A stretch of 64,000 nt of DNA from Pirellulales bacterium (GTDB lineage Bacteria; Planctomycetota; Planctomycetia; Pirellulales; Pirellulaceae): assembly GCA_046349935.1 (NCBI GenBank), contig JAXMBK010000012.1, positions 77,556 through 141,555 of the forward strand, in the 5' to 3' direction. Numbering within the stretch: position 1 is the stretch's first letter; every line of letters starts with the position of its first letter. The position numbers were made by a program, and so were the translations under genes. This document shows, piece after piece, positions 5,020-33,150 of this stretch. A model generated the notes under the pieces. It saw only the letters and a list, made by a program, of their open reading frames with translations. It was not told the origin of the DNA and ran no database searches.

Positions 5020-5778
5020 TTACTCGCTCGGCGCGGAATCGTTTGACTCGTGAACTCTCAGTAGAAGATTATCCAGTTGGCGAGGGCTGAGGGCGAGTTG
5101 GAGTTTCGAGTCACAGTGTTTTCGTAGGGCTTCGCAGCGTTCGACAAACCGGCCGTATTCTGGATCGCCATTCGTTTCATGCTTGGGGGAGCGAGGGAGT
5201 TCGTCGTTGAGCTTTCGCAACGCCGCCGTTGCTCGCGCGTCGAAGATACAGAAGAGTCGTGGGACGTGAAAATGCAGGTACTTAGACGCCAGCGAGCGGT
5301 TTTCGAGCCCGGAAATCTGCTGGAACAGTTTCATGGTTCGGTCATGCACTTTCACCAGAGTTTCGATGCCCCGAGGCGTACCCGGTTCCGACGCACGCGC
5401 TTCCGACAGCCATTCGTCGAGGTCGGACGTCAGCACCGTCGGCACCACTCTTTGAAGATAGAACCGATCGCCCTTCAAGTCATCTCCGCCCTTACGCCGC
5501 TCAATCGACGCGGCATAGGTCCGCCCGATGAGCAGGATCTTGGCGATGACGGCTTGCTCTTCCGTATGGCCCGGGTGTTCGCGACACAAGTCGTACAAGA
5601 CCTGATTGCCAAGGTCCCATGGGGTTGGGGCCATCGCTTTGGTGACGAGTGCGGCATCCAACAGGCTATTATTTTTCACGACACTCCTCTCATTTGAATT
5701 TCCGTCCGTTGGGCCTGACCGCCGCGGCCGAGTTCTCTTCGGATCATGACTAGCACAAGTGACGCCAGCTGTCTCCAA
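5020..5778 (-). CDS. hypothetical protein
   Basis: 252-aa ORF on the same strand as 4361..4999, 20 bp upstream of it, so a possible two-gene operon. No recognisable domain. Confidence 0.4.
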   Translation of the reverse strand: METAGVTCASHDPKRTRPRRSGPTDGNSNERSVVKNNSLLDAALVTKAMAPTPWDLGNQVLYDLCREHPGHTEEQAVIAKILLIGRTYAASIERRKGGDDLKGDRFYLQRVVPTVLTSDLDEWLSEARASEPGTPRGIETLVKVHDRTMKLFQQISGLENRSLASKYLHFHVPRLFCIFDARATAALRKLNDELPRSPKHETNGDPEYGRFVERCEALRKHCDSKLQLALSPRQLDNLLLRVHESNDSAPSE

Positions 5779-6677: not shown

Positions 6678-8304
6678 GCCAATGATTCTGCGGGAAGCAC
6701 AATAACCCCCGGTTTTCGGACCAGGGGGGAAGGGCAATACAGGTGGATCCGTAGTACCACGACGGACATTTGTCCCACGAGGCAGAACTGCGGCTCGAAA
6801 GGCAGCATTTCCGCGTCGAAAGGAGCCAAGGCGTCGCCATGCTCGCCGTCGCACATGAAAATCACACCCGTCAGCAGGCAACTTGACTCTGCATCGAGAC
6901 CATCGCAGGTGGAATTCTGACGGATGCCGTCGACGCGGGAGGCTTGCGTCATCCCACCGTGTCTTGGCCTGCGAATTCTCGACGAACTCGACGGCGAATT
7001 ACCCAGCGATTGCTCGACGGCCTTTCGGCGGCTGAATCGTTGCCGCGACAGCGACCAAGCGGCGGCTTCCTTGCTATGGGCGATACGCGCGAGGCACGTC
7101 ACGAATTGCCGATTGAGAGCTCACTCCAAGTCGCGGGGGTGCCATCGAGAGCGATGAAGTCATCGGCTAGGTCTGCGGCTCCATCCGCCCTCATCTGGCA
7201 GCGTGAACTCCCGACCAAGCGGCGATAATTCACGCGACTCGTCCACTGGAAGACGTTTTTGCCGGACACGAGCTCCCTGCCTCAAGGCCGAGAGTCGCAA
7301 TTCGGTACGATTATTCGCGATCAGTCGGTTCAGCCACTTTTCCATTGCCACTTCGCAAAGAGACGTTTTCCCATTCCGCAGCGGGCCTCCGTCAATGGAA
7401 AATCGCTCGACGATCAGCTGTCGACGTCCTCAGCCAAAGCTTGCTCGGCACACGGTACACCCGTACCTTGGCGAGCGTCAGTCAACCACAGACCGAGACA
7501 GGCGAGCTCAGAAGAGCACTCCCAACCGTTTCCTTCCTTGCAGCGATTCTCGCATGGGCGACGGTCTCACCCGCCGTCGAAACACTGAGTCAGCAACGCA
7601 CAGGAATCCTCGCCGCTTTGGCTCCGGTACGCTGACGAACCGCTCCGATGGCTCGACCACTCGAAGGCAGAAAGTCGGCAGCGGCTCTCTCACGACCGAG
7701 CGGGATCAAAACGGCAAGATGATCACCGGCACGACTCAACCGCTTGGCAGCGGCACCTTCTCGACCGACAAGCCCGGCGGGAGTTCCTCCCAATCGAGTA
7801 AGGCGGTGACGAGATAATTCGAGCGAACATCCAACAGCCTCCCGCCTGTACCGGCATTTTGAGCCTCCCCTACATCGCCGAGTTTTGCAGCTTGTTTCTC
7901 GTTTCTCAATCATCCGTTGACGAGTGGCGGAGTTTCACCAACGAATTCCGCAAGTCACGTGCTCGCTCTCTCCGACCTGTCAGTTACGCGTATTTCGATG
8001 CCAGGTTGGACAAATGTCCGACATACGAATCTCTTGCCAGCGCCTCTATGTACGAGTGTCGCTATCCAGGCTTCTTTTTCTGGCAAGATCGCGACGAGCT
8101 TCGCCGCAGCGTTTGTTTACGACCGGACTCAACGCTTCCGATCGCTAAGTATTGAAGTGATATGTTCAGATCCCATGCTCGAACATGGGCGCGAGGGTAA
8201 TCACCGAGAATCTGTTGGCTCGCACTTCTATCGGCGGTCGCTCCGCCTTCCGCTACGGCGTATCGGGGCCCGGGCTCCGCCCTCTCCGGCCCCGAACGCC
8301 TCCG

Positions 8305-10356
8305 CTACTCGCTCGACTGAACTGCGGCAACGCGGAAGCCCAGGCCGTAGTTCCGGCTTGACGGGTCGACCCTGTCGCGAAGCGCCGACCGGCAGTAGCT
8401 GGGCCTGCTGCCCCAGCTCCCGCCTCGGAAGACCCGGTGCGAGCCCTCGGACGGGCCGATGGGGTCTGCCTTAAGCGATGACTCGTAACTGTCGTACCAG
8501 TCTGAGCACCATTCGTTGACATTCCCATGCATGTCGTAGAGTCCCCAGGCATTCGGAACGTAACTTCCAACGCGCGTGGTGCGTGCAAGGTATTTACCTT
8601 TGGTGCTCGTGCCGTACGGAGTGTTGCCATCGCAATTCGCTCGATCCCCGTTCAAGACGCTGCCGAAGTGGAAGGGCGTCGTCGTCCCGGCTCGACATGC
8701 ATACTCCCATTCGGCTTCCGTCGGCAGTCGATACCGAAGGCCTTTCGCCCGTTCCGCGGGCAAGGCAGATAAACGGCGACAAAACTCGACAGCCTCTTCC
8801 CAACTCACCGACTCTACCGGAAAGCGACTTGTGTCTAGTCCCGCTACGTCATCCTTTCCCTCACCGTCCGGACTGAAGTCACTCGGGTTCTTCCCCATGA
8901 CGCGCAGGTACTCTTCCTGCGTCACCTCGTACTGGCCCAAATAGTAGCCCTGGGTGATTCGTATTTGATGTCGAGTCTCGTTGTCAAAACGCTCCGCTTC
9001 CTCTTCCGGCGACCCCATCCAGAATTCACCCGCCGGGATGTACGCCAACTTCATACCCACGTTGTTGACGGTGATTGCCCCGGGTTGCGGTCGGCCGTGG
9101 TTCGCCCGCCGATCCAACTCTCCACGCACATACGGCACAAACAACGCTACTCGCGCCTTCCCATTCACAAAGTCGCGAGTCGCCGCCAACAGCTCCTGAT
9201 CGGCGTCCTGACGCGGATCGAGCCGCAATAAGATCTCCGCCAGTTGGGACTGCAGTTCGCTCGTGAAGGCACCCGTCGTCGGTTGGCGACGCACACTTGC
9301 CACCAGCGCCGCTAAGTCACCGGCCTTCTTCGCCAGCGGCAATTCACGAGCCGCTTCCGGTCCTTGGTACGACGGCGACTGTTTCTTCTCCGGGTCGCCC
9401 GGGCGACGACGACGATTCTGATCTTCGGTCCACCTCCGCACCGATCGTTCCACGTACCCGGCCACCGAGCTCAAACGCACCACATTCTGATCGTCCGCCG
9501 ACGCGCCGCCCCGTAGGGCCTCGAGCAGCGCGTACGTAAAAACTCCATGCCCAGAACCGCCTAGTTCCGAATGTTCGTAACTGAATTCTCCCACGTCGCA
9601 CGATACTAACTTCGACTGCCCCGTCGGCTTCTTCAGAAGCTCCAGAAAATCGGCCGTCATCGCCCGTCCGCTCGCAATCCGGCTAGAGCGAGCGCCATCC
9701 GACAACCGTTCCTGGCACGCGTCGACCAGCAGCAGCCGATGGCCGGCCTGCGACGCGTTCATCTGCTCTTCCACCGACGACAAGCGGATGGCCGTATCCT
9801 CCAGGAACGTGCGCAATCCGTCGCTCGGCATCACATATCCCACGCGTTTATCCGTGAAGCCATGGGAACTGAATGACACGACCAGCAGGCCCGACTTGGG
9901 CTGAACACCCTGACGCGTCCGCACGAACGATCGCAGAATTGTGCTCTTCTCCGCCCCAACGACCTGTACGCCGAGTTGCTTCAATTCCGCCAGGTGACGC
10001 GTCACGCGTTCGCCCGACGGTTCGCCCGAAATCGCCAAGTAACACTGACGCGCGGGCAGCAGCTTCAATTCGGCGACGAACAAGTGACACTGTTCGACGG
10101 CGTCATTGACTGCGAACCGCAGCGGTTGCATATCGGGATCGGCCGTGAATTGGTTCACCCCAACGAACAACCCACCGTTCCCTGACGACGCGACATCTGA
10201 CAGCGGCGCAAACAGCGAAGCTCCACCGCTGGCTGCGCCCTCGACGACCAGACTGCGCCCCGCCGCGGCCGTTCCGTTCGATGCGTCTTGCGCCCAGCTC
10301 AGCGAAGCGCCCAGGACTACCAACAAGCACCACGTCGAAGAAATTGACCGTCTCAA
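8305..10356 (-). CDS. secreted caspase-like (peptidase C14) protein with C-terminal FGE-sulfatase/C-type-lectin-fold domain; remote DGR target
   Basis: Signal peptide. Caspase His/Cys dyad context (SFSSHGF, LLLVDACQ). C-terminal FGE-family motifs (GSPEEE, VTQEEY, SWEEAVEFCRRLS, RLPTEAEWEYACRAG, GLYDMHGNVNEWCSDWY, RGGSW). The 3' end carries VR1. Confidence 0.85.
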   Translation of the reverse strand: MRRSISSTWCLLVVLGASLSWAQDASNGTAAAGRSLVVEGAASGGASLFAPLSDVASSGNGGLFVGVNQFTADPDMQPLRFAVNDAVEQCHLFVAELKLLPARQCYLAISGEPSGERVTRHLAELKQLGVQVVGAEKSTILRSFVRTRQGVQPKSGLLVVSFSSHGFTDKRVGYVMPSDGLRTFLEDTAIRLSSVEEQMNASQAGHRLLLVDACQERLSDGARSSRIASGRAMTADFLELLKKPTGQSKLVSCDVGEFSYEHSELGGSGHGVFTYALLEALRGGASADDQNVVRLSSVAGYVERSVRRWTEDQNRRRRPGDPEKKQSPSYQGPEAARELPLAKKAGDLAALVASVRRQPTTGAFTSELQSQLAEILLRLDPRQDADQELLAATRDFVNGKARVALFVPYVRGELDRRANHGRPQPGAITVNNVGMKLAYIPAGEFWMGSPEEEAERFDNETRHQIRITQGYYLGQYEVTQEEYLRVMGKNPSDFSPDGEGKDDVAGLDTSRFPVESVSWEEAVEFCRRLSALPAERAKGLRYRLPTEAEWEYACRAGTTTPFHFGSVLNGDRANCDGNTPYGTSTKGKYLARTTRVGSYVPNAWGLYDMHGNVNEWCSDWYDSYESSLKADPIGPSEGSHRVFRGGSWGSRPSYCRSALRDRVDPSSRNYGLGFRVAAVQSSE
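8314..8451 (-). repeat. DGR variable repeat VR1 (remote)
   Basis: ~138 bp matching TR 23253..23391. About 17 mismatches lie at TR adenines (coding strand) and about 6 elsewhere. Covers the RGGSWGS...LGFRVAAV region. Confidence 0.75.
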
Positions 10357-10559: not shown

Positions 10560-11810
10560 ATGTGTGCAAATGGTCTTGGGACCGCTCCGGCCCGTTTATT
10601 CCTGATGGCGGCGTTCGTTTGGGGCTTGACCGCGTTCGTGCATGACTCGACCATGGCGAACGAGCCGACACTGAGGCCGCCCAAGCTCTACGTCGTGCTG
10701 CTGATTGACACGGACAGCAATTTGGCAGCCGATGTCGCAAAAGACCGCGACAATCTTCAGCGCATCCTCTCCGAGGCCTTTGCAACTCGCCCACACCGTT
10801 TCGAGGTGACCGTCCTGCAGGGCCGCCAAGCGACTCGCGAGCAAGTTCTCGCCACTCTGAACGCACTTCGCGGCAAGGTTCGCGAGAACGATTCCGTCTT
10901 CGTTTACTACTCTGGCCACGGCGCCACGCTCCTCAACGACGGCGGACACGCCCTGACGCTTCACCACGACCAAAGGACCCAGAGTCGTTTCTTGCTGCGA
11001 TCCGAAGTGCTGGAAGCGATGCGTTCGTCGTCGCCTCGACTGAGAGTTTTGCTGACGGACTGTTGCAGCAAAATTCCCGAACAGTTGCGAGGACGCCTAC
11101 TCCCCGCGGCCCCCAAAGCAACTTGGCCTGTCATGGACACGTTGTTCTTTCAACACCAAGGACTCACCGACATCAATGGCTGCCAACCGAACGCCTTTTC
11201 CTGGAGTTATTGGGACGCAGACGGGCCTAAAGGAGGCACTTTCACACTCGCCCTCGTCCCCCTCCTTTGCACGAAGCGAGACGACATCAATCCCGTCTTC
11301 GGCGTCAGCGATGGAATCGTCAACTGGCGTACATTCACGAATCCACTCAAACGCGACACAGATCGACACTATCAGTCACTACGCCAAGCGCTGCTTGCGG
11401 ATCCATTGATCGCCGAGTCCGAAAAGTCGGCAATGCGCGACCAGCTCGAACAAACTCCGGAGGTCTTCTCACTCGCCACGTTGGCCCCGCAACCGATCGT
11501 TGACAATGCGTGGATGCTGGGCATCGAACATACCTCCGCCGTTGAGAACGGCAAACCCGTTGTTTACATCGTTCGAGTTTACCCCAACACGCCGGCGGAG
11601 ACGGCAGGCCTGCGTCAGGGCGACACCGTCGTGTCGATCAACGACATCCGAGTCAACGACCGCGAGCAACTTGCGCGTTTGATCGACTATTCGGACGGTC
11701 GCATTAGGCTGTGCTGCCGTAGAAATGGCGAACAGAAATCGTTCGACATCCCCCTGAAGCCCGTAAAGCCCGCTCCGGTCGCGCCCCCCGCGCCTGCGAT
11801 ATCGCGTTGA
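10560..11810 (+). CDS. caspase-like (C14) domain protein with C-terminal PDZ domain
   Basis: N-terminal hydrophobic segment. YYSGHGA and LLTDCCS dyad contexts. C-terminal PDZ-like block (VYIVRVYPNTPAETAGLRQGDTVVSINDIRV). Confidence 0.75.
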   Translation: MCANGLGTAPARLFLMAAFVWGLTAFVHDSTMANEPTLRPPKLYVVLLIDTDSNLAADVAKDRDNLQRILSEAFATRPHRFEVTVLQGRQATREQVLATLNALRGKVRENDSVFVYYSGHGATLLNDGGHALTLHHDQRTQSRFLLRSEVLEAMRSSSPRLRVLLTDCCSKIPEQLRGRLLPAAPKATWPVMDTLFFQHQGLTDINGCQPNAFSWSYWDADGPKGGTFTLALVPLLCTKRDDINPVFGVSDGIVNWRTFTNPLKRDTDRHYQSLRQALLADPLIAESEKSAMRDQLEQTPEVFSLATLAPQPIVDNAWMLGIEHTSAVENGKPVVYIVRVYPNTPAETAGLRQGDTVVSINDIRVNDREQLARLIDYSDGRIRLCCRRNGEQKSFDIPLKPVKPAPVAPPAPAISR

Positions 11811-11864
11811 GCCACCAAAATCCCTATCGAAGACGTCCCCTTCCTCGTATCGTGGAGCCCATGA

Positions 11865-12464
11865 ATGCGTTCGATCGCTCTCGCCTCTAGCATCGTCTTT
11901 ACGGTCTGTCTCTTAATCACGTCGGAAGCCTCCGCCGTCAATTTTGAGCAAGTTTACTTTCGCGATGACGGCACCGTCCTTCTGCAGATCCATTTCAATG
12001 GCGGCATTACCAAGAGATCCAATGCCTCGTGGGACGCCCGTCGCACCTCGAAAGGTGAACTCTACTACCAGTGTCGATATCGGGCGAAAAATGCTGCGGG
12101 TCAGGTCGTAAATGAGCAAGTCCTGTACTACTTTGTCGATGATCCCGTCGATGGCAACACCGATGCTTCAAACCATTGGGTCTACTGGTACAGCGTAAAG
12201 ACGGAGGTGATTTGGGGGCGATGCCCCACCAAGAATCATCCCAACTATCGTCAATGGCTGGCAGCCAAGGGACCGGACCTGTGGCAGGTAGTTCCCAAAG
12301 CAGCTCGGCCCGCCCTGAAAGGCGAGCTGCGAATCTCCGCTGTCGGGCCGAGATTCGCTCTGGAAGTAATCGGCTTGAATGACGAGACGATGCCGAAGGT
12401 GGAGCCTACGACCGCCAATGATGCGATTTTGTGCATCGACCTTGAGAACGCGATTTTCAGCTGA
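11865..12464 (+). CDS. secreted hypothetical protein
   Basis: Signal peptide MRSIALASSIVFTVCLLITSEASA. No known domain. Confidence 0.45.
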   Translation: MRSIALASSIVFTVCLLITSEASAVNFEQVYFRDDGTVLLQIHFNGGITKRSNASWDARRTSKGELYYQCRYRAKNAAGQVVNEQVLYYFVDDPVDGNTDASNHWVYWYSVKTEVIWGRCPTKNHPNYRQWLAAKGPDLWQVVPKAARPALKGELRISAVGPRFALEVIGLNDETMPKVEPTTANDAILCIDLENAIFS

Positions 12465-12548
12465 GTCTCGCTTCGCGCGCAATTCGACGGCGGACATTTG
12501 TCCGCCGTCGGAGATTGCGTCGCGATTCACCCCTTTGGCCGCCGGTTG

Positions 12549-13508
12549 TTACTCCGCCTTCGTCAGCTCAGCAGTCGGAGTCGGCCCCGACTGCTGCTGC
12601 TGGATGGCCGTCTCAGCAGTCGGCGTCGTTTCAAACTCGATCACCAGCGCCGATTCCTCTTGGGCCGACGTCGTCGTCGGCTCTTTGGATAGGGGCACTT
12701 CTCGCTTCGTCGAAGTCGAAACCGCGTCCACGCCCGTCGGTTGGCCGGCTTGCACCGGGATCTCCTCCAGGAATCGGCGGGCCGCCTCCTGGCTGGCCAG
12801 CGCTGGCGACGTTCCTCGCGATTCATCCGCCATCAGTTCCGCAACGCTGCGAACCGGATTGTCCCGCAACACGCGTTCGTTGACGTTGAACAAGGCGTCG
12901 ACCTGCGCGATGAGTTCCTCCCCGACCGCGGTCAACTCGCGCGACTCGAGCAGCTCACGCTGCGTCCCGATCGCCGCCAGCTGCGTTTCGGTCGCATTGA
13001 GTCGGACCACGATCTCCCGAACGCGCTGGTTCGACTCGTCCTGGATTCGCTGGAGCCGCTGGAGCGACTTCTCGAACCCCTCCGCCTCCGCCAACAACAG
13101 GCTCACTTGCGCCACCGCCTGCTCTTCGGTGTAAGCCGCGTTGCGGACGACGATCGGAAATGCGCTTTGCTGGCGAGCTTCCTGGAACCGCTGGCGAAAC
13201 TCCTCCGTCAGTTTCTGCGCTTGATCCCGCAGCACCAGTTGCTCGCGCACCTTGCCGCTCAGCTGATCGGCGTTTCCCACCAGCTCGAAACGGCACTTTT
13301 TCAGCAGAGCTGCTTCGGCCTTGAGCTTCTGCTCGACGTGCCGCGTGAAGCCCGCTGGATCAGCGCGTCGCGCTTCCTCGGTCCAACCGAACCAATCGCG
13401 GCCTTGCATGGCCACCGTGGTCCGCACAGCCGGCGAAACACGATAGGCGCCCGCAAGCAACGCCATGGCCACCACCGACACTCCCACATGTCCCCAAGAA
13501 ATCTTCAT
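12549..13508 (-). CDS. membrane-anchored coiled-coil hypothetical protein
   Basis: N-terminal TM/signal segment, long heptad-like charged region, Thr/Ser/Pro-rich C-terminus. Confidence 0.45.
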   Translation of the reverse strand: MKISWGHVGVSVVAMALLAGAYRVSPAVRTTVAMQGRDWFGWTEEARRADPAGFTRHVEQKLKAEAALLKKCRFELVGNADQLSGKVREQLVLRDQAQKLTEEFRQRFQEARQQSAFPIVVRNAAYTEEQAVAQVSLLLAEAEGFEKSLQRLQRIQDESNQRVREIVVRLNATETQLAAIGTQRELLESRELTAVGEELIAQVDALFNVNERVLRDNPVRSVAELMADESRGTSPALASQEAARRFLEEIPVQAGQPTGVDAVSTSTKREVPLSKEPTTTSAQEESALVIEFETTPTAETAIQQQQSGPTPTAELTKAE

Positions 13509-13695
13509 CGCCCTGCCCTTTCTAAAACGACGCTTCCCAGAATCAAGACTGGGGCATCGCTCGACGCCCCACTGTCATGGAGAGGCTTTCTCCGCGTCGA
13601 GATTGCGCGCCGCGGAAAGAATCGTCGGATTCGCGGTGGCGGAATGTGACCGTATCGACGGTCAACATGGCTGCGCCGCTTCCAAGAGGAGCAAC

Positions 13696-13728
13696 AAAAA
13701 AAGGCGGACCGACGTTTGTCGGCCCGCC
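13696..13728 (-). terminator. Rho-independent terminator after gene 13750..15138
   Basis: GC-rich hairpin ggcggaccgac/gtcggcccgcc (one mismatch, loop gttt) followed on the minus strand by a 7-T run. Confidence 0.55.
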
Positions 13729-13749
13729 CGCGTGAAGGAAATTCGTTGT

Positions 13750-15138
13750 CTATTTCCGCAGGTACAGCGGCGGACTGGTGTTGTCGATCAGCTCCGGCGT
13801 TTGCGTCGCGCCCGGAAAGCGATCCGCGACGTATTCCGGAACCAGCTTCTTCAGTTGAGCCGCGGCCTCCGTGAGCGAGAGCGGCCCCTGCGATTCGCGA
13901 ATCAGCTGGTCGAGGAACTTGGTCATCACCGAGAGATCGCCTTCCTTGCGGACGAACGAAATCTGGGCGGCGCGCGACGAGACCAAAAGCGCCGTCTCCT
14001 TCTGACCGATGTCCTTGGTGTGCTGCAATTCGCCGTCCAGCATGTCGAGGTCACCCAGCGACTTGACGCCGTCTAGCCCGCGCAGCCCCTTCTCGGCGGT
14101 CGCTTGTCCGCCCGAGTGACACGTGTCGAGCAACAGCACGACTTTCCGTCCATCCAGATGCTGCATCAGCCGGCCAAAGTGATCGTCCAGCAGCACCGAG
14201 TTTCGCAGCGTCTCCGGATTGTTGGTTTGCGCGTCGTAGGTCACCAGGAATTCGTCGAGCCCATCCGTTTCGTCTCCGTTATCATCGGCGCACCGGCCGC
14301 CATGCCCCGACCAATAGATGAAGACCGTGTCGCCCGGACGAGTTCCCTGGGCCAACTTGCCCTGAATGTGTTCGACGATCTTGGCGAGCGTGGCTTGCTC
14401 GTCAAGAAGAAGATGTGCTTCATCCAAGCCGCCGTACATCTTCATCGTCTTGAACATGGTTTCGGCATCGGGGCGGCAGGCGGGAAGCGGCCGAATGGCC
14501 TGGTCTCGGTACTTCGCGAGCCCGATAAACAAGCCCACGCGACGCGGTCCGCGGACGGCAGGAGTGCCGTCTTTTGCAATGGTCGTGAAGTTGACCGAGT
14601 GCTCGGCCCATTTGGCGGGCTTTCGGTCGGCCCCTTCGACAAACGCCGCTTTGATACCCTGGTAATCGACCTCCGTCGCAGCGGCCTTGCGCAACCCCTC
14701 ATTGTCAAACGGCAACCGCTCCTTCGTGACAATCGCCTTAAGTACTTCCTCGCCGAAGGGAGCGCCGATGCGAATCCGAAACGCCGGGGCGTCTGGGGGC
14801 GGAACCAACGTATCTTTGTTGGCCTTAATTTCGTTGTCCGTTTGATACTTGTTCGGAAACAGACACCGCACCGTTCCCTGCGAATCGCGATTGAACAGGT
14901 ACAGGTAGCCATCGGCGCTCGACCGCACCGTCGCCGTCAAGGTTTCGCCCTCTCGATAGATGCGGTTCTCGTGATCGACGCTCACGCGCACCAGAAACGC
15001 CTGATGCGGGTTCTGCACTTCCTCCACGAACAGCCCGCGCGGAACAACTTGCTCTTGGCCGTAGCCCCAGCTGGCGAACGCCAGGATCATCACGCCGGTC
15101 GCCATCTTCCAGGCCCCTTGCTTCCCAACCATTTTCAC
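13750..15138 (-). CDS. caspase family protein with N-terminal DUF4384-like domain
   Basis: Signal peptide. DUF4384-like block (GYLYLFNRDSQGTVRCLFPN). Caspase dyad contexts IYWSGHGG and LLLDTCHSGG. Confidence 0.8.
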   Translation of the reverse strand: MKMVGKQGAWKMATGVMILAFASWGYGQEQVVPRGLFVEEVQNPHQAFLVRVSVDHENRIYREGETLTATVRSSADGYLYLFNRDSQGTVRCLFPNKYQTDNEIKANKDTLVPPPDAPAFRIRIGAPFGEEVLKAIVTKERLPFDNEGLRKAAATEVDYQGIKAAFVEGADRKPAKWAEHSVNFTTIAKDGTPAVRGPRRVGLFIGLAKYRDQAIRPLPACRPDAETMFKTMKMYGGLDEAHLLLDEQATLAKIVEHIQGKLAQGTRPGDTVFIYWSGHGGRCADDNGDETDGLDEFLVTYDAQTNNPETLRNSVLLDDHFGRLMQHLDGRKVVLLLDTCHSGGQATAEKGLRGLDGVKSLGDLDMLDGELQHTKDIGQKETALLVSSRAAQISFVRKEGDLSVMTKFLDQLIRESQGPLSLTEAAAQLKKLVPEYVADRFPGATQTPELIDNTSPPLYLRK

Positions 15139-15195
15139 GCTCCTTTTCCAAACGTTGTTGACTCGTCAGTTTCCAAGTTGTTTTGCTTTACCAAG

Positions 15196-17094
15196 CTAGC
15201 CTGCCGCACCTTCGCGACGCTCGCTCGCCGGTTTCTGTTCCGTTTGCTCCGTTTGCTCGGTTCCCGGCTTGTCGCTGGGTTGCGGCTTCGGAGGTTTCTC
15301 TTTTGTCTGAGACGGCGTCTGCTTGGCGTCGGGCGACTGCTTCGGCTTCGCGGGCGCCGCTGCCCCCACATAGAACGCCACCTCATCCTGAGCGAACTCT
15401 CCCAGGTACGTCTTGGGGTCGAGTCGCCCAAACTCCTCCTGGGAGAGGCGTTCTTCACGCTGGTATTGCGCGACCAGCTGCTGAATTTGTTGAGCTTGCG
15501 ACGGCGGCCAGCGAAACTCTTGTCGTTGAAGCTGCTGTTGCTGCGGTTTCGGCGTCGCTTGCTGCTGCTGCGTCGCGTTCGACGCCAAACCGCTCAAGTG
15601 CAGCGGGCGCGAAGTCACCACCGCCTTGATCCGAGCGACTCCCGCCGGCCCTTCGACGCGAATTGCAAACTCGTCCTTGCCCCCGGGAATCGTGAACTTC
15701 GTCGACGCCTCCACCCGATTGGTCTGCCCCGGCTGCGGATACAGCAGCGCCAACTCGCCTTGTCCATTCAAATACAACAGGTACAGGTAGCCCGCCTTGC
15801 TGCTCGACCCGCGCACCTCCAGCGCCTCGCCGATCTGGTACTCGCCGCCATCGAACCGGTCCACCGTGATGTCCAAGGGGAAGGCGGACGTCTTGTTCGC
15901 CACCAGCCCCAATAGCTCCCAGGCGCTTAGCACCACTGGCTGCTCGGCCGGCGTGGGCGCGGGTCGAGGCGGTGTATTCGGAGTCGACGGGACGGTTCCC
16001 GGAACGGGAGGCGCTGGAGTCGGCGGCGGCGGATTGTCGGGATTGGCCGGCAGCATGGGCGTCGGCGGCATGGGCGTCGGAGGCGTGGGAGTCGGAGGCG
16101 CAGGAGTCGGAGGCGGCGCAGGGGGAGTCGGGGGAGCTGGAGTAGGCGTGGGCGGCGGAGGCGACGTTCCCGCGACCGGGCGACCGACGAACTGACGCAC
16201 CTGCGCATAGTCGATTTCGGGATTCTCCGCCCGTTGTACGGTTGGGAACCACGCAAAGTCGGGATGATCCTTGACGCTCGGCCCATGCCACTTACCCGAT
16301 CCGGCGACGATCTTGTTCCCTCGCAGCTCGAACGTGAACCAGTACGTCTGGCGGCGCACTTTGACCCCGACGTAATCCGGCGTCACGAAGTCGTCGGCGA
16401 ACCAGAGGGTCAATTGGGCCAGTTGCTGGTTGTTTCCTCCATGCGGAGCGTACGTGATCTTGTAAGCGTAAACCGGGAAATTCCAAACTTCCTCTCCCGC
16501 TTCGATATCCAACACCAGCGGCAGACGCTGTTGCTTGATATACAGCTTGAGCAGTTGCCACAGTTGGTCGGGCGCCAGGTCGCCGCGGTCCTCCGATCCG
16601 CGGCCGTCGCCGAAGCGATCGCCGTAGGAGTCGGCTTCATCGTAAGCGTGCGTCAGGGACAGCAACCCCTTCTGATCGCCCACGCCCAGCGGCAGTTGAC
16701 GCCCTCGCCCTTGAGCGACGCGGCTTTGCGCGGGCTCCGGCTCGCGAACCGCCGAGGCGGCCCAAGCATGGCAGTATCCGTGCCAGCGCGGCACCTCCGG
16801 TCCCGGCGGATGTTGCTTTCGTTCCCACGCAGCGGCCGCCTTGCCGGTCAGCTGGTCGTATTTGGCGAGCGGCCCGAGAATCTGGCCTTCGCGGTGCGGC
16901 CACCAATAACCGGACCAGGGCGTCCGATCCACTTGTCCTTGATCTTCGCCGGCGACGAGCGGCGACGCGGCCCCCCATGCGACCAGTCCCACTGCCAACC
17001 CCGCGGCGAGGAGCCGCCAGGTCGGCCGTTTCCCTTGAGTAATGCGTTGGTTCATGATTCTTGCTCTCTCCCTTAGACGGCGGACAGGCCGCAT
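15196..17094 (-). CDS. secreted protein with papain-fold-like Cys motif (GYCHAWA), Pro/Thr-rich linker and DUF4384-like domain
   Basis: Signal/TM segment. WSGYWWP...GYCHAWAASA resembles papain/transglutaminase-like active-site contexts. ~70-aa PT-rich linker. DUF4384-like block (GYLYLLYLNGQGELALLYPQ). Q-rich and K/P-rich tail. Confidence 0.55.
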   Translation of the reverse strand: MRPVRRLRERARIMNQRITQGKRPTWRLLAAGLAVGLVAWGAASPLVAGEDQGQVDRTPWSGYWWPHREGQILGPLAKYDQLTGKAAAAWERKQHPPGPEVPRWHGYCHAWAASAVREPEPAQSRVAQGRGRQLPLGVGDQKGLLSLTHAYDEADSYGDRFGDGRGSEDRGDLAPDQLWQLLKLYIKQQRLPLVLDIEAGEEVWNFPVYAYKITYAPHGGNNQQLAQLTLWFADDFVTPDYVGVKVRRQTYWFTFELRGNKIVAGSGKWHGPSVKDHPDFAWFPTVQRAENPEIDYAQVRQFVGRPVAGTSPPPPTPTPAPPTPPAPPPTPAPPTPTPPTPMPPTPMLPANPDNPPPPTPAPPVPGTVPSTPNTPPRPAPTPAEQPVVLSAWELLGLVANKTSAFPLDITVDRFDGGEYQIGEALEVRGSSSKAGYLYLLYLNGQGELALLYPQPGQTNRVEASTKFTIPGGKDEFAIRVEGPAGVARIKAVVTSRPLHLSGLASNATQQQQATPKPQQQQLQRQEFRWPPSQAQQIQQLVAQYQREERLSQEEFGRLDPKTYLGEFAQDEVAFYVGAAAPAKPKQSPDAKQTPSQTKEKPPKPQPSDKPGTEQTEQTEQKPASERREGAAG

Positions 17095-17098
17095 GAAA

Positions 17099-17932
17099 TT
17101 ACCGGTTCCCCGCAGGTTCGACCTTCACCAAGCGACTCCGCGTCACGCCGTTGTCGGAATAGGCCGGCCACGGCAAGTTGGCTTGCCACAACTGGCGGAC
17201 TTGCCGATTGCGTGTGTTCAACTGCACGTTGGCGATCGGCTCGCGGGTGAGGCTCTTGGAGAACTCTGCATGCAAGAGGCCCTTCACTTGGTCTTCTTGC
17301 GCGCCGCTCACCGATTGTTCAATCGCGTAAGAGAAACTCAGGTCGTCGAACGCCTTCACCCCGGCCGGCCCTGGAATGGCCTCGAACTCGAACGCCTTCG
17401 TCCCCTTGGTGTCGGCCTGCTGAAACACGGGCAGATCCACGGGCAGCAGGACGAGCATCGCCACGACGACGGGGGACGGCTGGCCGGTTGGAAACGCGTA
17501 ACTTTCCGTCATGGTGCGTACTTCGCCTGCAACCGTATGCTGCGTTTGCACCTGCCGTAACGCATAGGAATCGCGGTCGACCCACAGTCGAGTGACCGGC
17601 GCTTGCACCTGGGCGTCCAAGCAGTCGATCTGGACGCGAAAACAGGGCCGCTCCGCCACTTGCTCCTCGCCCTGCACCGTAAAGCGCCACGTGAGCGGCT
17701 TGGCGAGGGGAGCGTCCTTGTCGATCGTTTCCCGACGCTGAACTTGCTGCGTCTGGGTTTCAATCTCCCAGCGGTCGCCCACTTTCCAGCGGGGACGCAG
17801 CTTTTCCACGACCAGTTCCCCGTCACGGGCGGTCGCGGCGTTGGGCTGCTGCGCGAACGACCAGGCCCACCCGCCGGCGACGCTCGCCAGCAGCGTGCCG
17901 CAACACACGAGGTTCACAACGTGTTTTCTCAT
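17099..17932 (-). CDS. secreted hypothetical protein
   Basis: Signal peptide. Same strand as, and contiguous with, 15196..17094 and 13750..15138 (likely operon). Confidence 0.5.
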   Translation of the reverse strand: MRKHVVNLVCCGTLLASVAGGWAWSFAQQPNAATARDGELVVEKLRPRWKVGDRWEIETQTQQVQRRETIDKDAPLAKPLTWRFTVQGEEQVAERPCFRVQIDCLDAQVQAPVTRLWVDRDSYALRQVQTQHTVAGEVRTMTESYAFPTGQPSPVVVAMLVLLPVDLPVFQQADTKGTKAFEFEAIPGPAGVKAFDDLSFSYAIEQSVSGAQEDQVKGLLHAEFSKSLTREPIANVQLNTRNRQVRQLWQANLPWPAYSDNGVTRSRLVKVEPAGNR

Positions 17933-18621
17933 GATGATTTTCCTTCAAGAGATGTCGGTTTCCCGCTGACCAGCCCCACCAGCACGCAAAGCGCACCCCG
18001 CAGAGTGACTGGAATCTTAGGACGGCCCTCCGCAGGCCGCAACGCGGGTCTCACTCGGTGAGAGGGGCGGAGCGAGCCAGGATTGCGCTCGCCGCGCTAG
18101 ACGGTGAACGGGCCCGGCTCGGACTCGAGAATTCTTCGCAACGAGCGCAATTCTCGCCGCGACGTCGCCTCTTACGAGCGATGGCGAGGGAGGGGCCGCG
18201 GTCCTCGTCGTCTGGATAAACCATGCCGCGACCCATGCGCACCCCTTCGACGGAGAATTGAATCATGCAGCGCCGTCTTTTCCACGTCAGTCTCACGACT
18301 CTCGCCCTTGCGAGCGGCAGTCTCACCGCCGCCCTCCTGTTCGCGGGGCCCCGCGAATCTCCGCAGCAACAGCAGGAGTCGGCGGTTCAATTTGAGCAGC
18401 CCAGTTTGCTGCCCAACCAAATGGGCCAACAGCAGCAGCAGCAGCAAGAACATCCGGGCGTCCGGCGGCCGCGACAGCACTCTCAGCAAACGCGGCTTCC
18501 GCAACAACAACTGCCGAAACCCAAACTGCAGCCCCGGCATTTTCAACACCTGCAACATACGCCTATCATGCAAGGCAGTCGTCGCCGGTAACCTTCACCT
18601 CGCCATGGTCGCTGGCTTGCC

Positions 18622-21600
18622 TTGCAACCAGCGACCATGTTCCGACGCGGACCCGTGGTATGTCTGTCGATCGAAAGGAATCTCCCGATGCATCGTGTTG
18701 CCTTTCCAGTTCGCATCATGACCGTCGCCTTGTTGTTGTTGGGCGGCGTCTTGGGATGGAATGGCACCGCCCAGGCGGAAGGGCCGTCGACGCTCGACGT
18801 TCAGCAGGCGATCGGTCGATTCTTGGCCGATAAACGAGACTTTGGCGATAACACGAAGTGGGCCGCATTGCGTCGACGCGTGCGGCTGGAACCGGCGATG
18901 GCTTCGGTGATTGATGGACGAATTCACGTCGCCGCACCGATGCTTTGGAAACTTCCGACCGACGAGTCGTCTCAGGCGGTGCGGGAACTTGAGTTGTTAC
19001 TCGCGGCCGCGCTCGAAAAAGCGGCCGGCTCGGACCGACGATTTCGCGGTCGTCCGGCATTCGATTGGGTTCGAGAAAGTACGATTACGACCGCCCCCCC
19101 GGTGGCCATTCGCCGACTAACTGAGGTCAGCGAAGTCGAGGTAATCAGTGTGATCAACGACTATGTGGAGTCGCTGGACCGCGAGAATCGATGGGAAGCC
19201 GAGGGCCTTGGTCCACTTCAACGCAGCCTGCAGCTGCGCGGGCCAAACCTGGGCGTCAGCGAGGCGCGGTTTTGGGGCGACAAGTTGTCGCTCGGGTGGT
19301 CCGCCCTCGTGCGCGATGAGAGCGTTTGGCCATCCGTCACCCCCGCGGTGCGAGCGGCTGCCGCTCGCGCGGCCAGGGAACGTGCCAACGACCGCGACTG
19401 GGCGACGCTCAACAATTTCAATGATCAAGTTCGAACTACCGCGAACCGCCTCCGCGAACGGTACGCCCCGCTCCTTCAACCACTCGTCATCCGAGCGTTG
19501 ACGACGCACGTTGCCGCTCCAGCCTCCGCCCCGCTCCTCGAAGCGGCATCGCCAGCGAGTCTACAAGTCGACTTGTTTCTCGACATCCCCGCGGAATTGA
19601 GGAGGGTCGAGCGCGCAGGAGCAGTCGCAGCGGCGATGCCCCCTGGCGCCGGCAATCGGCGCATTGTGAACGCGGCCGGCAACGACTCAGCTGGCTACAC
19701 GTTTCGCTTTGTCAAAGCCGAGAAGTTGCGACGACTCTCGGCCGAGCAACAACCTGAGCTGACGCATGTGCGGTTAGAAGAAGCAGCCGACTCGGCATCC
19801 GTGAAGCGAAGAGAGTTTCAGCTCGACCTACAAGGATTCTCCGGCGGTACGCTCTCTGCCCTTGAGTTTTCCCCGGACGGCCGACGTCTCGCTGCCGCCG
19901 GCGACGTGCTCCGTATCTGGGACTTAGAGAAGGGCGTGTTGGAGCGAACGTTGCGAGCCGGCCAGATTACCGAGCGTGCAACGGGTTTTCGCGACATTGC
20001 CTATAGCCCAGATGGAAGACTCTTGTGCGCAGCCATGACCGGGACGAAACACCGGATCTGGGTCTACGAAACAGGCGATCTTTCGCGCGTGAAGTTCGCG
20101 TTGGACGGACATGACGAGGAGGTCGAACACCTGGCGTTCTCCAACGACGGCCGACACTTGGCGACCGCCGATATCCAAGGACGCGTCTTTCTTTGGGATT
20201 GGCCCAAGCGCCGCAAGATTTGGGGCTTCAAGTTCGAACACGCGATCAGCCACCTGAGCGTTTCGGAGTTTGAGGTATTGGCGATTGACAGGACGCTCGA
20301 TTTCTCGCGAATTCCGCTCGATCTGGATGCCCCTGGCGGTTGGTTCGGCGACGAAGACCCGCTCATTACGCTCATCAACAACTCGACTTACCCCGGCGCG
20401 AACGCCAAGCTATTCCCTCGTTCGGTGGCCGTTTCGAAAGACTCGCAGACTTGTTTGATCGGCGGGCGATCGGGCCGCGACGGCCAAAACGACAACTACC
20501 ACTGGTGCGCCGCCTTCACCATGGAACAATCGCGTCGCGGCGAACCGCACTCGTCACAGGCGGCGGTCGACCATCGATACACACTGCTGTGTTGCGCGCT
20601 TTCGACCGACGGACGGCTGTGTGCCAGCGGCGATGCGCTTGGCTTGGTTCAAGTATGGGACCGTAAGTCCAGCTTGATCAAACATCGCTTTGAACCGTTC
20701 GGAAAGGGAAACCTGAGCGTCGACTTCGGCGAGTCGCTTGCGGATTGGCGGCTGGGCCGTGATCGCTACATCGGAGAACAGTGGAAGTACAACCATTGGG
20801 CGCCGTTGCACCTTCAGTTCGACTTTGGCAAGCGTATTCTCTCTTCCGTCTCCGCAACCGAACCGCGCGATGCAAGAATCCGCGATCACCAACGTCTTTC
20901 CTACGACTACGATGCAAACCTCCTGAAAATCTACGAGAACGATCAGCTCCAAACTTCCGTCGACTTCAGCTCGCACGGCGCTAATTGGAAACTGTTCGGC
21001 TACGGGTTTTACCCCGTGCAGGGACTCGAAGCCGGCTATGGCGTCATCGTCTGCTCGGAAGGAGGCGGCGTCTTGTGCCTCGATCCGAAGACGCTCCGCC
21101 CTAAACGCATCTTCATCGGCCACAATAGCCGCGTCTGGAGCGCTGCTGTCTCGCGCGACGCGATGAATGGTAAGCGTCTCATCACTACCGGCTCGGACGG
21201 CGTCATCCATGTCTGGAGCCTCGAGCAGTTTCAGCCGACGTATAATTTGGCCGCGTTGGTCGACGAGGATCGCAAGATCACTTACATCTATCCCGGCACG
21301 TCGACGGCCGAACGGCTGGCGATTGGCGATCGCCTCGTGTCGATCGGCGGTCTGACTCCCATCGAATGGCTGGATAGCGACAAGGCCAAGTTAGCGCCCG
21401 ACGATCCAGTGACCGTGGTCATCGAGCGTAACGAACAAAACTACCGCGTGCCGGTCGTCTTGTCCGAAATGGGCGATCTCACGCGGCCTCTCGTCAGCGC
21501 CGTCCTTTCGGAAGATGGCAGCGAATGGGTGATCTGGACGCGGAGCGGCTACTTCGATTGCTCGCCGCAGGCCGGCCGACTGCTCGGCTGGTTGGAGAGT

Positions 21601-22956
21601 CGCGAGGGGGATCAGTCGGCGCAGTTCATCGACGGCGGCCAACTTCGCAAGCTCATGCACCGGCCCGACGTCGTCAACCTGACGCTCACCCTGGGCGACG
21701 AACAACTCGCGCTAAGGCAGGCCGATGCGCTGCGTAACCCAGACGCTCCGCCTCCACCCACGCCCGCTCCCGGCCACGGTAACGTCCCCGTGCCGCTGGC
21801 CTCTACCATCCCGAGCCCTCCCCGCGTGCGTTTGCTGCAACCGCTGGAAGGGTCGGCGACGGTGACCGCCGAAGAGACGGTGGAGGTGCGAGCGGTCGTG
21901 ACGGCGCCTGCCGGTCGGCGACCGGAGATCGTGTTTCGCGTGAACGAGTCGGTCGCCGCCTCGCGCAGCCTGGTCGTCGAGGGGATCGCCCCAGCGCTGC
22001 CGCCGCCGCCGGCTGGCTTCGAGCACTATTTCGCCGGTCAAACGATTTCGCTGCGCTTGGGCTCCAACGTCATCCAAGTGCTGGCGCGCCTGCCCGAAGT
22101 CCAGACTGCCGAGGGCACAAGTTTCGTCATCGTGGAGCGGCGTCCTACCACGGCAAACGGCACATCGACGAAACCCACGCTCCACTGGTGTTCGATCGGC
22201 GTCAACGATTACCAGGGAACGGGTTTGGCCAGCCTGCGATTCGCGCACAACGACGTCGATAAGGTGGCCGAGGCGCTGCTGAAGCGCAAGCAGAAGCCGC
22301 GTTTCCCCTATCAGGACGTGAAGGTGCATCGGCTGGTGGACCAGCAAGCAAGCAAGACGGGGATCGGCGAACTGTTCGACGCCCTCACGAACCCGAATTC
22401 GCCGGATCGCGTTCGTACGGGTGATACGGTGAGCATTCATATCAGCGCGCACGGCGGTAAAGTGGCGGGCACGGACGGCTACATGCTGGTTCCGCATGGC
22501 GGCGACCCTCGCAAGCCGCGCGCAACCTGCGTCTTGTGGAGCGAGTTTGTGGAGTTGGCTCATGCGTTGGGCCAAAAGAATGTCCGCCTACTGTTGTTCG
22601 TGGATACCTGTCGAGCCGGCGGACTGGGCGACATCGAGAGTGGAGCGGCACGGGTCTTCACGAGCGAATTGAGCGGACTGGTCTTCACGGCCAGCGGGGC
22701 CAAGCAGAATGCGTTGGAATCGCCGACTTGGGAGCATGGTGCATTTTCCTTGGCGTTACGCGAGGCGATTGAAGGGCAGCGGCTGTCCGACGTCGAATGG
22801 GCCAGCGGCTTACAGCCCGACCAGGATCGAAACGGCGTCGTCGAAGTACGCGAGCTCGAAGCGTTCCTCCACCGGCGAGTCAAATCGCTCACCATGGACC
22901 AACAAGCCCCCGATTACGCTTGTCCCCGCATGGGGCTCGATCCGGTGTTGTTCTAG
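18622..22956 (+). CDS. large secreted multidomain protein: WD40 repeats, PDZ-like domain, C-terminal caspase-like (C14) domain
   Basis: Signal peptide at the internal Met (MHRVAFPVRIMTVALLLLGG). WD40-like repeats (VWD, HVWS, LWDW). PDZ-like block (IGDRLVSIGGLTPIEW). C-terminal caspase dyad contexts ISAHGG and LLFVDTCRAGG. Confidence 0.75.
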   Translation: MQPATMFRRGPVVCLSIERNLPMHRVAFPVRIMTVALLLLGGVLGWNGTAQAEGPSTLDVQQAIGRFLADKRDFGDNTKWAALRRRVRLEPAMASVIDGRIHVAAPMLWKLPTDESSQAVRELELLLAAALEKAAGSDRRFRGRPAFDWVRESTITTAPPVAIRRLTEVSEVEVISVINDYVESLDRENRWEAEGLGPLQRSLQLRGPNLGVSEARFWGDKLSLGWSALVRDESVWPSVTPAVRAAAARAARERANDRDWATLNNFNDQVRTTANRLRERYAPLLQPLVIRALTTHVAAPASAPLLEAASPASLQVDLFLDIPAELRRVERAGAVAAAMPPGAGNRRIVNAAGNDSAGYTFRFVKAEKLRRLSAEQQPELTHVRLEEAADSASVKRREFQLDLQGFSGGTLSALEFSPDGRRLAAAGDVLRIWDLEKGVLERTLRAGQITERATGFRDIAYSPDGRLLCAAMTGTKHRIWVYETGDLSRVKFALDGHDEEVEHLAFSNDGRHLATADIQGRVFLWDWPKRRKIWGFKFEHAISHLSVSEFEVLAIDRTLDFSRIPLDLDAPGGWFGDEDPLITLINNSTYPGANAKLFPRSVAVSKDSQTCLIGGRSGRDGQNDNYHWCAAFTMEQSRRGEPHSSQAAVDHRYTLLCCALSTDGRLCASGDALGLVQVWDRKSSLIKHRFEPFGKGNLSVDFGESLADWRLGRDRYIGEQWKYNHWAPLHLQFDFGKRILSSVSATEPRDARIRDHQRLSYDYDANLLKIYENDQLQTSVDFSSHGANWKLFGYGFYPVQGLEAGYGVIVCSEGGGVLCLDPKTLRPKRIFIGHNSRVWSAAVSRDAMNGKRLITTGSDGVIHVWSLEQFQPTYNLAALVDEDRKITYIYPGTSTAERLAIGDRLVSIGGLTPIEWLDSDKAKLAPDDPVTVVIERNEQNYRVPVVLSEMGDLTRPLVSAVLSEDGSEWVIWTRSGYFDCSPQAGRLLGWLESREGDQSAQFIDGGQLRKLMHRPDVVNLTLTLGDEQLALRQADALRNPDAPPPPTPAPGHGNVPVPLASTIPSPPRVRLLQPLEGSATVTAEETVEVRAVVTAPAGRRPEIVFRVNESVAASRSLVVEGIAPALPPPPAGFEHYFAGQTISLRLGSNVIQVLARLPEVQTAEGTSFVIVERRPTTANGTSTKPTLHWCSIGVNDYQGTGLASLRFAHNDVDKVAEALLKRKQKPRFPYQDVKVHRLVDQQASKTGIGELFDALTNPNSPDRVRTGDTVSIHISAHGGKVAGTDGYMLVPHGGDPRKPRATCVLWSEFVELAHALGQKNVRLLLFVDTCRAGGLGDIESGAARVFTSELSGLVFTASGAKQNALESPTWEHGAFSLALREAIEGQRLSDVEWASGLQPDQDRNGVVEVRELEAFLHRRVKSLTMDQQAPDYACPRMGLDPVLF

Positions 22957-23252
22957 GCGTTGAACCGCGGAGCGGTCCACAACGAACCGCAGGACAGGCT
23001 TTCAGCCTGTCTCTGGTCGCCGGAGCGTCGTTCCCTCACGGAATCGTAGATGCCCCAAGCGCCTCGCGGGCGGGCCATCCAAGAACGACCGCATGACGGC
23101 TCTCACAAGAAAAACCGCGTCGAGCGTTCGATCAGGGCATCTCCCCAACCTACCAGCACCACGCGGCTCAACGATCGTTTGCCCGCACGGCCGTTCTCTG
23201 CCGCGAGGGACCGGAAAGCAGTCGGTTCCGTCCTGGGGATTCTCTGCTCCCC

Positions 23253-23391
23253 GGATGGAGCTGCGGCAACACGGAAGCCCAGGTTGTTGTTCCGGTTCGT
23301 CGGGTCGTTCCTGTTGCGGTTCGACGACCGGCAGTTCCTGGGACTGTTGTTCCAGCTCCCGCCCCGGATGACCCGGTTCGAGCCTTGTGAC
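23253..23391 (-). repeat. DGR template repeat (TR)
   Basis: ~139 bp, 16 nt downstream of the RT stop. In the target frame it encodes SQGSNRVIRGGSWNNSPRNCRSSNRNRNDPTNRNNNLGFRVAAAPS with 11 AAC (Asn) codons. The two VRs differ from it almost only at its adenines. Confidence 0.85.
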
Positions 23392-23406
23392 TGCTCACCA
23401 GCCTAT

Positions 23407-24396: not shown

Positions 24397-24922
24397 GCAC
24401 GTTCGCCTCCAGCAACTGATCCAGCAACTCCAGGAAGCGCGGCCCATACTTTTCGCTGCGTGCGTCTCCGACTCCAGCAATCGCTGTGAGGGCGGACTTC
24501 GTTCGCACGCGATTCTGCACCATCTGGGCCAATTGCTCGTTGGTGAAGACCGTGTAGATGGGAACCGCCTCCGCCTGCGAAATCTCGCGGCGTAGATCCC
24601 TTAAGCGAGCGAACACCGCGAAGTCCGCCTCGTTCAGGATCTGTTTGTAGTCCTTGCCCTTGCTCTTCCCACTCGAGACGGCGGAGGAACCGTCTCCTGC
24701 CCGGCTCAGTTCCACGTAATCAATGCAGAACGACCAGAACGAGTCGGAACCTTGCTCCACAAAGCGCCGATAAACCGCCAACACGCGATGGCTGCGCAGA
24801 AACCCATTGAGCGCGACTTCGGCCGCCTCCAAATCGCGCACCGGCACCACGAAGAACTTAAACGGCATCCGAACTCCTCGATGATGGGCCGCTCCGCCTT
24901 CCACTGCGGCGTGCCGAGGCAC
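24371..24922 (-). CDS. DGR accessory protein with HRDC-like domain
   Basis: C-terminal block VFTNEQLAQMVQNRVRTKSALTAIAGVGDARSEKYGPRFLELL resembles an HRDC domain. Lies between the target gene and the RT and overlaps the RT start. Confidence 0.6.
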   Translation of the reverse strand: MPRHAAVEGGAAHHRGVRMPFKFFVVPVRDLEAAEVALNGFLRSHRVLAVYRRFVEQGSDSFWSFCIDYVELSRAGDGSSAVSSGKSKGKDYKQILNEADFAVFARLRDLRREISQAEAVPIYTVFTNEQLAQMVQNRVRTKSALTAIAGVGDARSEKYGPRFLELLDQLLEANVHETGGESV

Positions 24923-24991
24923 GGGCTCCGCCCTCTCCGGCCCCGAACGCCTCCGCTCCAGGCTCCGCTCACTCTCTGACCGGCTCCGCCG

Positions 24992-33058: not shown

Positions 33059-33150
33059 TGCATTCTCGGCGTCGTCAATCGACGCTCGTCGTCAGCCCCA
33101 CTCCTCGGAGGCCGGGCCCCCGGACCTCCTCGCCGTCGTGAGAGATAACC

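Follow-up and report, generated by a model that had tools for sequence, protein, structure and literature searches.

A 64,000-nucleotide window of a 245-kb contig from a metagenome-assembled genome (MAG) of a Pirellulales bacterium (GenBank assembly GCA_046349935.1, contig JAXMBK010000012.1, positions 77,556 to 141,555) contains a complete diversity-generating retroelement (DGR) and two genes encoding caspase-FGE proteins. One of these genes is the target adjacent to the DGR and carries variable region VR2. The other lies 14.8 kb from the template repeat (TR), and its 3′ end carries a second variable region, VR1. As judged from sequence comparison, VR1 is very likely a TR-derived, non-adjacent variable region written by this DGR, because its mismatches are biased toward TR adenines, the cassette is complete and a 3′ flank element is retained. 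We consider it probable that VR1 is a genuine remote target of this HRDC-type DGR that has long gone unrewritten and is now dormant or decaying. The distance to the TR agrees with an earlier sequence-only reading of the window, which had placed a second target about 15 kb away.

Comparison of VR1 and VR2 with the template repeat

The following elements were compared.

8305–10356, minus strand: remote target gene, an intact open reading frame of 683 aa
8319–8447, minus strand: VR1, aligned to the TR without gaps (VR1 coordinate = TR coordinate minus 14939)
23258–23386, minus strand: TR, non-coding and rich in AAC codons, with 32 adenines
25006–25134, minus strand: VR2, differing from the TR at 20/32 adenine sites and at 0/94 internal non-adenine sites

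A BLAST search of the window with the 3′ end of the VR1 gene returned further copies of its last ~130 nt at 23258–23384 and ~24995–25140, and the homology of the gene to the TR spans 8312–8448. The TR core at 23258–23386 was compared in the ungapped register with VR1 and VR2 each. VR1 differs from the TR at 17 of the 32 adenines and at 8 of the 97 other bases (Fisher p = 2.8e-7), and VR2 at 20 of the 32 and 1 of the 97, respectively (Fisher p = 3e-14). The sequence-only reading had placed VR1 at 8314–8451, matching the same TR with about 17 differences at adenines and about 6 at other bases, and was essentially right on both counts. The sole non-adenine mismatch of VR2, a C>T at TR position 23260, is common to VR1 and to the cassette variable regions (VRs) of two related DGRs (contigs L017 and L018) and marks the boundary between the initiation of mutagenic homing sequence (IMH) and its TR counterpart, IMH*.

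Over 8312–8448 the adenine-site changes in VR1 comprise 10 G, 6 T and 2 C. G and T are about equally frequent in the cassette VRs of the two related DGRs as well (G7/T7/C1 and G8/T10/C2). In VR2, 19 of the 21 adenine-site changes are A-to-G, a significant excess (binomial p = 4e-5) for which selection for Gly/Ser and an unusual misincorporation or editing step are both possibilities. VR1 and VR2 share 7 derived adenine-site states where 5.3 are expected (p = 0.19). Sharing does not exceed chance, which is consistent with one TR having been copied into the two sites independently, each time with mutagenesis at adenines.

The two caspase-FGE genes are 35–68% identical in DNA sequence just upstream of the VR and 80–82% identical across the TR-homologous block, and the rise in identity coincides with the 5′ boundary of the TR. 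The alignment segment that covers the flank behind the stop codons is 87% identical, with a 54-nt BLAST match of the flank at 91%. This profile fits templating by the TR together with a conserved cis element.

The remote target gene and the DGR cassette

The protein encoded at 8305–10356 combines a Peptidase_C14 domain (E 1e-11) with a C-terminal FGE-sulfatase/C-type-lectin-fold domain (FGE-sulfatase E 1e-48), and its caspase domain has SSHG and DACQ motifs at the expected places of the caspase His/Cys dyad. With these domains and the adenine bias given above, the assignment of the VR to a paralogous caspase-FGE gene in the sequence-only reading is borne out. Between the VR1 and VR2 proteins, identity amounts to 51% over the N-terminal half and to 40% over the FGE domain, and both have signal-peptide-like N-termini, as judged by eye only. 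The VR1 protein is 100% identical to NCBI MFO0905747.1 (Pirellulales MAG). No contig was matched in exact look-ups of the VR1 protein (P0001, with L or M as the first residue), and its protein cluster has a single member, with no near-identical DNA or protein fragments found. The last 143 aa of the VR1 gene product, used as a protein query for variants in the same sample, gave no match above 70% identity, and a scan of genome contigs, from a collection that does not include this MAG, gave 0 matches to the common VR/TR 3′ pattern. Neither a transposase gene nor any other mobile-element gene was found beside VR1.

The cassette occupies the minus strand in the order caspase-FGE target with VR2, HRDC gene, reverse transcriptase (RT) and TR. 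Besides VR2 and the TR, it has the following parts.

24992–27529, minus strand: cassette-adjacent target gene, caspase and FGE-sulfatase; the database version has 833 aa, which puts its start near 27493
24371–24868, minus strand: HRDC-domain accessory gene (HRDC E 1e-16), between VR2 and the RT
23407–24396, minus strand: DGR reverse transcriptase, 329 aa (RVT_1 E 3e-17), with LPIGSLTSQ and YMDD
23100–23257, minus strand: non-coding stretch downstream of the TR, ~150 nt, kept in four related DGRs, with a T-run at its end

The stretch from 23258 to 27529 is a complete DGR. The window has no TR-like copy besides the TR itself. Of the 33 adenines in the somewhat wider range 23251–23387, 30 fall at codon positions 1 and 2 (17, 13 and 3 at positions 1, 2 and 3, respectively). 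The HRDC gene overlaps the start of the RT gene by 26 nt, as it does in the relatives on L017 and L018, whose RTs are 62–63% identical to this one and which have the same target-HRDC-RT-TR layout. This layout places the cassette in the HRDC class of DGRs, which is architecture C in Wu et al. 2018 (PMC5758913). Avd was not found in the window by tblastn and the cassette appears to be HRDC-only. The related DGR on L018 has a bAvd gene (11387–11635) after the RT, besides HRDC. More than 4000 homologues of the RT were found at E<=1e-40. The look-up of the RT itself gave one match, a 1.3-kb Logan contig from run SRR26348422 that is 100% identical to the window.

The stretch behind the TR has conserved blocks, for example GACGGAACCGAC, GGTGCTGGTAG and GCGAACGCTC, the last followed by the T-run. 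By its position it is probably the counterpart of the BPP-1 spacer RNA, which recruits the RT and primes cDNA synthesis. At gathering thresholds, Rfam gave no match in the window.

Time since VR1 was last rewritten

Each homing event swaps the VR for a TR-derived cDNA and thereby resets the non-adenine sites. At these sites VR2 matches the TR in 94 of 94 internal positions, whereas VR1 matches it in 87 of 94 (Fisher p = 0.014). The seven VR1 differences, at 8425, 8404, 8398, 8385, 8380, 8359 and 8332, are scattered over the whole VR and interspersed with the adenine-site changes. Were the RT error rate 7/94 per non-adenine site, the chance of a clean VR2 would be 7e-4. Very likely, then, VR1 has not been rewritten since these seven substitutions accumulated, and at present it would be inactive or only rarely targeted. 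The sequence-only reading had offered a trans-targeted or an older, partly decayed VR. The second half of that description fits the 7/94 non-adenine changes and a lesion in the IMH heptamer described below, and current trans-targeting is unsupported.

The TR of a related DGR (L007–L010, RT 67% identical) has the same base as the present TR at 5 of the 7 differing sites, so five of the changes arose in VR1 and not in the TR. On the same ground we rejected the idea that the TR drifted while VR1 kept the old state. By hand derivation, four of the seven changes are synonymous, as expected of drift under purifying selection. Mismatches at adenines make up only 68–71% of all mismatches in VR1. VR2 agrees with three published rules for DGR targets (Wu 2018, Vallota-Eastman 2020, Dore 2024), and VR1 departs from all three.

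The closest homologue of the VR1 gene, P0002 from a sister species (72% identity; Logan and ENA contigs), is represented by five protein variants on at least seven contigs. The VR region is identical in all of them, and six differences are scattered elsewhere.

The IMH heptamer and the 3′ flank element

Two elements at and behind the end of VR1 bear on its use as a target.

8316–8322, minus strand: IMH-like heptamer, GTTCAGT in VR1, with the VR-type T kept at 8321 and a unique C>A at 8318
8239–8306, minus strand: 3′ flank element, AGCGGAGGC, a GC-rich hairpin and then GCCGTAGCGGAAGGCGGAGCG, beginning within the stop codon of the gene
24890–24957, within 24890–24991, minus strand: the flank element again, in the interval from the VR2 gene to the HRDC gene

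The heptamer reads GTTCCGT in 7 of the 7 other distinct VR ends compared, namely VR2, the species-B homologue, two sister-MAG VRs, a Black Sea MAG, L017 and L018, and the corresponding position in four TRs reads GCTCC(G/A). VR1 also has a T>C at 8332, near its 3′ end. The C>A in the VR1 heptamer may have reduced targeting. A scan with a degenerate IMH pattern returned only three genome loci and one metagenome locus, none of which has an RT or a TR.

The flank element occurs in two copies only in the window, each directly behind a VR. The second copy is separated from the stop codon of the VR2 gene by a 36-nt insert with more GCGGAGC motifs. A hairpin is predicted for the VR1 flank in both DNA and RNA. 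RNAalifold was run on four flank elements, whose hairpins were misaligned by MAFFT. When three elements were folded separately, the VR1 and Black Sea copies gave hairpins that are alike and the VR2 copy one that is somewhat different. In BPP-1, a hairpin/cruciform at this position is needed for efficient homing (PMC3240598). VR1 thus looks like a region that carries the cis equipment of a DGR target. The sequence-only reading had proposed loss of the conserved 3′ priming sequence as one mark of an inactive relic; the conserved 3′ sequence and the flank are in fact largely kept, with one lesion in the heptamer.

Flank motifs also stand behind VR-type gene ends elsewhere, as GCGGAGC/GCGTAGC heptamers around a hairpin whose stem sequence differs. 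The framing motifs are present in a Black Sea Pirellulaceae MAG (L013, ~5130–5230, and L015, identical to each other) and in the cassette of an ENA contig (L017, ~9420–9530). On a JGI contig (L018, ~9250–9370) the heptamers recur and the framing motifs are less clear, and in the sister MAG (L014, ~7340–7540) only the 5′ part of the element is left. Across the VR flanks of this HRDC-type DGR clade, GCGGAGC/GCGTAGC/GCGGAAG heptamers cluster around a GC hairpin, and four flanks keep the framing motifs AGCGKAGGC and GCCGYAGYGGAAGGCRGAGCG although the stem sequence varies. A 25-nt piece of the flank had 0 matches when metagenomes were scanned for it. The flank may be a clade-specific target-recognition element.

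Alternative explanations

In the sequence of events that we favor, a cDNA of this TR, or of the TR's direct ancestor, that had picked up errors at template adenines would once have replaced the 3′ end of the remote caspase-FGE gene, guided by the IMH-like end and the hairpin-containing flank of that gene. Afterwards VR2 would have been rewritten again and VR1 would not, and VR1 would then have drifted by ordinary point mutation, its IMH heptamer included. Several points weigh against this account. The inactivity of VR1 is something that we infer and have not observed. VR1 may still be competent, since the VR-type T in its IMH-like end is kept and the hairpin flank is intact. Seven non-adenine differences are not disqualifying in themselves, since curated targets with up to 11 are on record (PMC5758913). 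The invariant VR of P0002 is indirect evidence based on consensus assemblies. Finally, the evidence covers 64 kb of a 245-kb contig of a MAG.

It is rather unlikely, as we see it, that VR1 is still an active trans target of the same TR, rarely rewritten, whose non-adenine differences are tolerated or stem from low-fidelity events or from later selection on binding residues. The IMH-like end and the hairpin flank, kept at 87–91% identity, the intact open reading frame with all its domains, and adenine-site states independent of those of VR2, which give VR1 its own homing history, are all in keeping with such activity. Targets with several non-adenine differences are moreover accepted, and unequal target activity within one DGR is documented (PMC5758913, PMC10907252). 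However, VR2, a product of the same RT, has 0/94 non-adenine differences, homing resets the sites at which VR1 has differences throughout its length, and the substitution in the IMH heptamer is unique. VR1 also lacks the perfect non-adenine match that serves as the criterion of trans activity in PMC10907252. For the same reasons, the proposal of the sequence-only reading that one TR diversifies two secreted protease-lectins holds only in part: the N-termini are signal-peptide-like by eye, but current diversification of both proteins is not supported by the 87/94 and 94/94 matches of VR1 and VR2 or by the unique heptamer substitution.

There is little to recommend the idea that VR1 is served from another part of the genome by a second TR, closely related to this one and matching VR1 at the seven non-adenine sites. 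Genomes with several related DGRs exist (PMC10907252), the view here is limited to 64 kb of a MAG, and the VR1 states GCG at 8385 and CGC at 8332 are common to homologous VRs in two other genomes. The other non-adenine states of VR1 are absent from those homologues, however, and the window has no other TR-like copy, nor was a second RT found on this contig among the best 120 RT matches.

It is very unlikely that VR1 was never targeted in place and that recombination or gene conversion instead brought in its 3′ end and flank from a VR2-type paralogue, with drift afterwards: the mosaic protein P0003, with a gene-1-like N-terminus and a gene-2-like middle, indicates that such paralogues recombine, and the flank, which is not TR-templated, is 91% identical between the two loci, but the high-identity block starts at the TR 5′ boundary and not at an arbitrary point, the flank is kept in distant genomes so that recent copying is not required for its identity, and VR1 and VR2 have no more adenine-site states in common than chance predicts.

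Comparison with known systems

Non-adjacent targets were reported for 45 of 372 curated DGRs, among them the HRDC-type DGR of Treponema denticola with seven remote targets (Wu et al. 2018, PMC5758913). The present locus resembles those systems in that a single RT/TR cassette that includes an HRDC gene has both an adjacent target and one kilobases away, in that the VR closes an FGE-sulfatase/C-type-lectin-fold domain at its 3′ end, and in the occurrence of TR/VR differences other than A-to-N. Such differences were seen in 23% of DGRs, one target having as many as 11, and the rule of that study was A-to-N differences only, with minor exceptions (PMC5758913). The adjacent VR2 conforms to this rule whereas the remote VR1, with 7–8 non-adenine differences, does not, and VR1 looks retired or rarely used.

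In cyanobacteria, variable proteins of the orthocaspase-CLec (C-type lectin) and kinase-CLec types with remote paralogues have been described (Vallota-Eastman 2020, PMC7517822). The proteins of the present window are similar to these in their N-terminal caspase-type peptidase and C-terminal CLec/FGE domain with a VR, and in their dispersed paralogues, which include kinase-CLec paralogues. The cyanobacterial study asked that >80% of TR/VR mismatches lie at adenines and accepted remote variable proteins at >=50% identity (PMC7517822). Under the latter rule VR1 counts as belonging to a remote variable protein. Its 68–71% of mismatches at adenines is below the 80% threshold, and the planctomycete host (Pirellulales) and the secreted-looking proteins are further differences from the cyanobacterial systems.

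In Thiohalocapsa PB-PSB1 the targets of one DGR are unequally active, some being diversified in populations and others static, and a perfect non-adenine match was used to infer trans activity (Dore et al. 2024, PMC10907252). DGR-linked, CLec-ended proteins that resemble conflict systems, with caspase, kinase and WD40 neighbours, are common to that organism and the present one. A static Thiohalocapsa target had kept a perfect non-adenine match to a TR (PMC10907252). The imperfect match of VR1, which is known here from one sequence, is unlike this and points to longer disuse.

As in BPP-1 (Guo et al. 2011, PMC3240598), an IMH-like sequence with a few base differences from the IMH* of the TR closes the VR, and a GC-rich hairpin lies within tens of bases of it, with a stem sequence that varies between elements. 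The flank described here differs from that of BPP-1 in being longer (~65 nt) and bounded by conserved GCGGAGC-type motifs, with an inner loop of GGA or GGTA where BPP-1 has a strict 4-nt GRNA loop (PMC3240598).

Neighbouring genes and homologues

Three kinase genes lie in the same window.

34780–37623, plus strand: Ser/Thr kinase, double zinc ribbon and FGE-sulfatase
37974–42611, plus strand: Ser/Thr kinase, double zinc ribbon and FGE-sulfatase
42735–47417: third kinase, without an FGE domain

The FGE C-termini of the first two genes are TR-like, at 70% over 102 nt in the first. The C-termini of the two kinase-FGE genes were considered as further VRs and rejected, with adenine and other mismatches of 12/26 vs 19/76 and 3/8 vs 7/31, respectively. 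They represent either non-target paralogues or very old relics. Since they have no comparable adenine bias, the pattern in VR1 exceeds what domain paralogy produces.

The DGR and both of its targets are situated in a cluster that resembles conflict systems or signalling systems (10560–22956 and 27558–34737). Its members comprise caspase-PDZ, DUF4384-caspase and transglutaminase-elicitor-DUF4384 proteins, a 1444-aa WD40 protein and a TPR protein, as well as a sigma-70 region 4 protein, a GYF-domain protein and an FHA protein. Homologues in the sister MAG (GCA_046349915.1, contig JAXMBL010000005.1) are surrounded by a similar gene set, and that contig has seven caspase/FGE paralogues. Two of them (L012, 2785–3246, and L014, 7539–8000) have 88% identical 3′ ends, with differences that cluster in the VR codons, and look as if both had been written from one TR. 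No RT or TR was found near them within the fetched flanks. The 789-aa proteins P0003/P0125 (ENA/JGI) are mosaic, with an N-terminal caspase half that is 87% identical to that of the VR1 gene product, a middle part like that of the VR2 gene and a different, not VR-like, FGE end. Caspase-FGE paralogues thus evidently recombine.

Significance

The arrangement of VR1 is an expected one, since the literature already has remote targets, targets of the caspase-lectin type and imperfect VRs. What is new is a further example in a Pirellulales genome, and the modest addition consists of the contrast between VR1 and VR2 together with the conserved flank and heptamer. One locus displays both states of a DGR target, with VR2 recently rewritten and VR1 probably frozen and gathering ordinary mutations.

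We tentatively suggest, as a possibility that we do not hold to be likely, that the ~65-nt flank (AGCGKAGGC, hairpin and GCCGYAGYGGAAGGCRGAGCG; rich in GCGGAGC) might be a portable recognition module of HRDC-type DGRs. Perhaps bound by HRDC, such a module could enrol any FGE-ended gene as a target, and single-base changes in GTTCCGT could retire targets and leave the fixed protein variant in place. Both the GTTCCGT heptamer and the hairpin flank rich in GCGGAGC are candidate on/off determinants of targeting in the little-studied HRDC-type DGRs.

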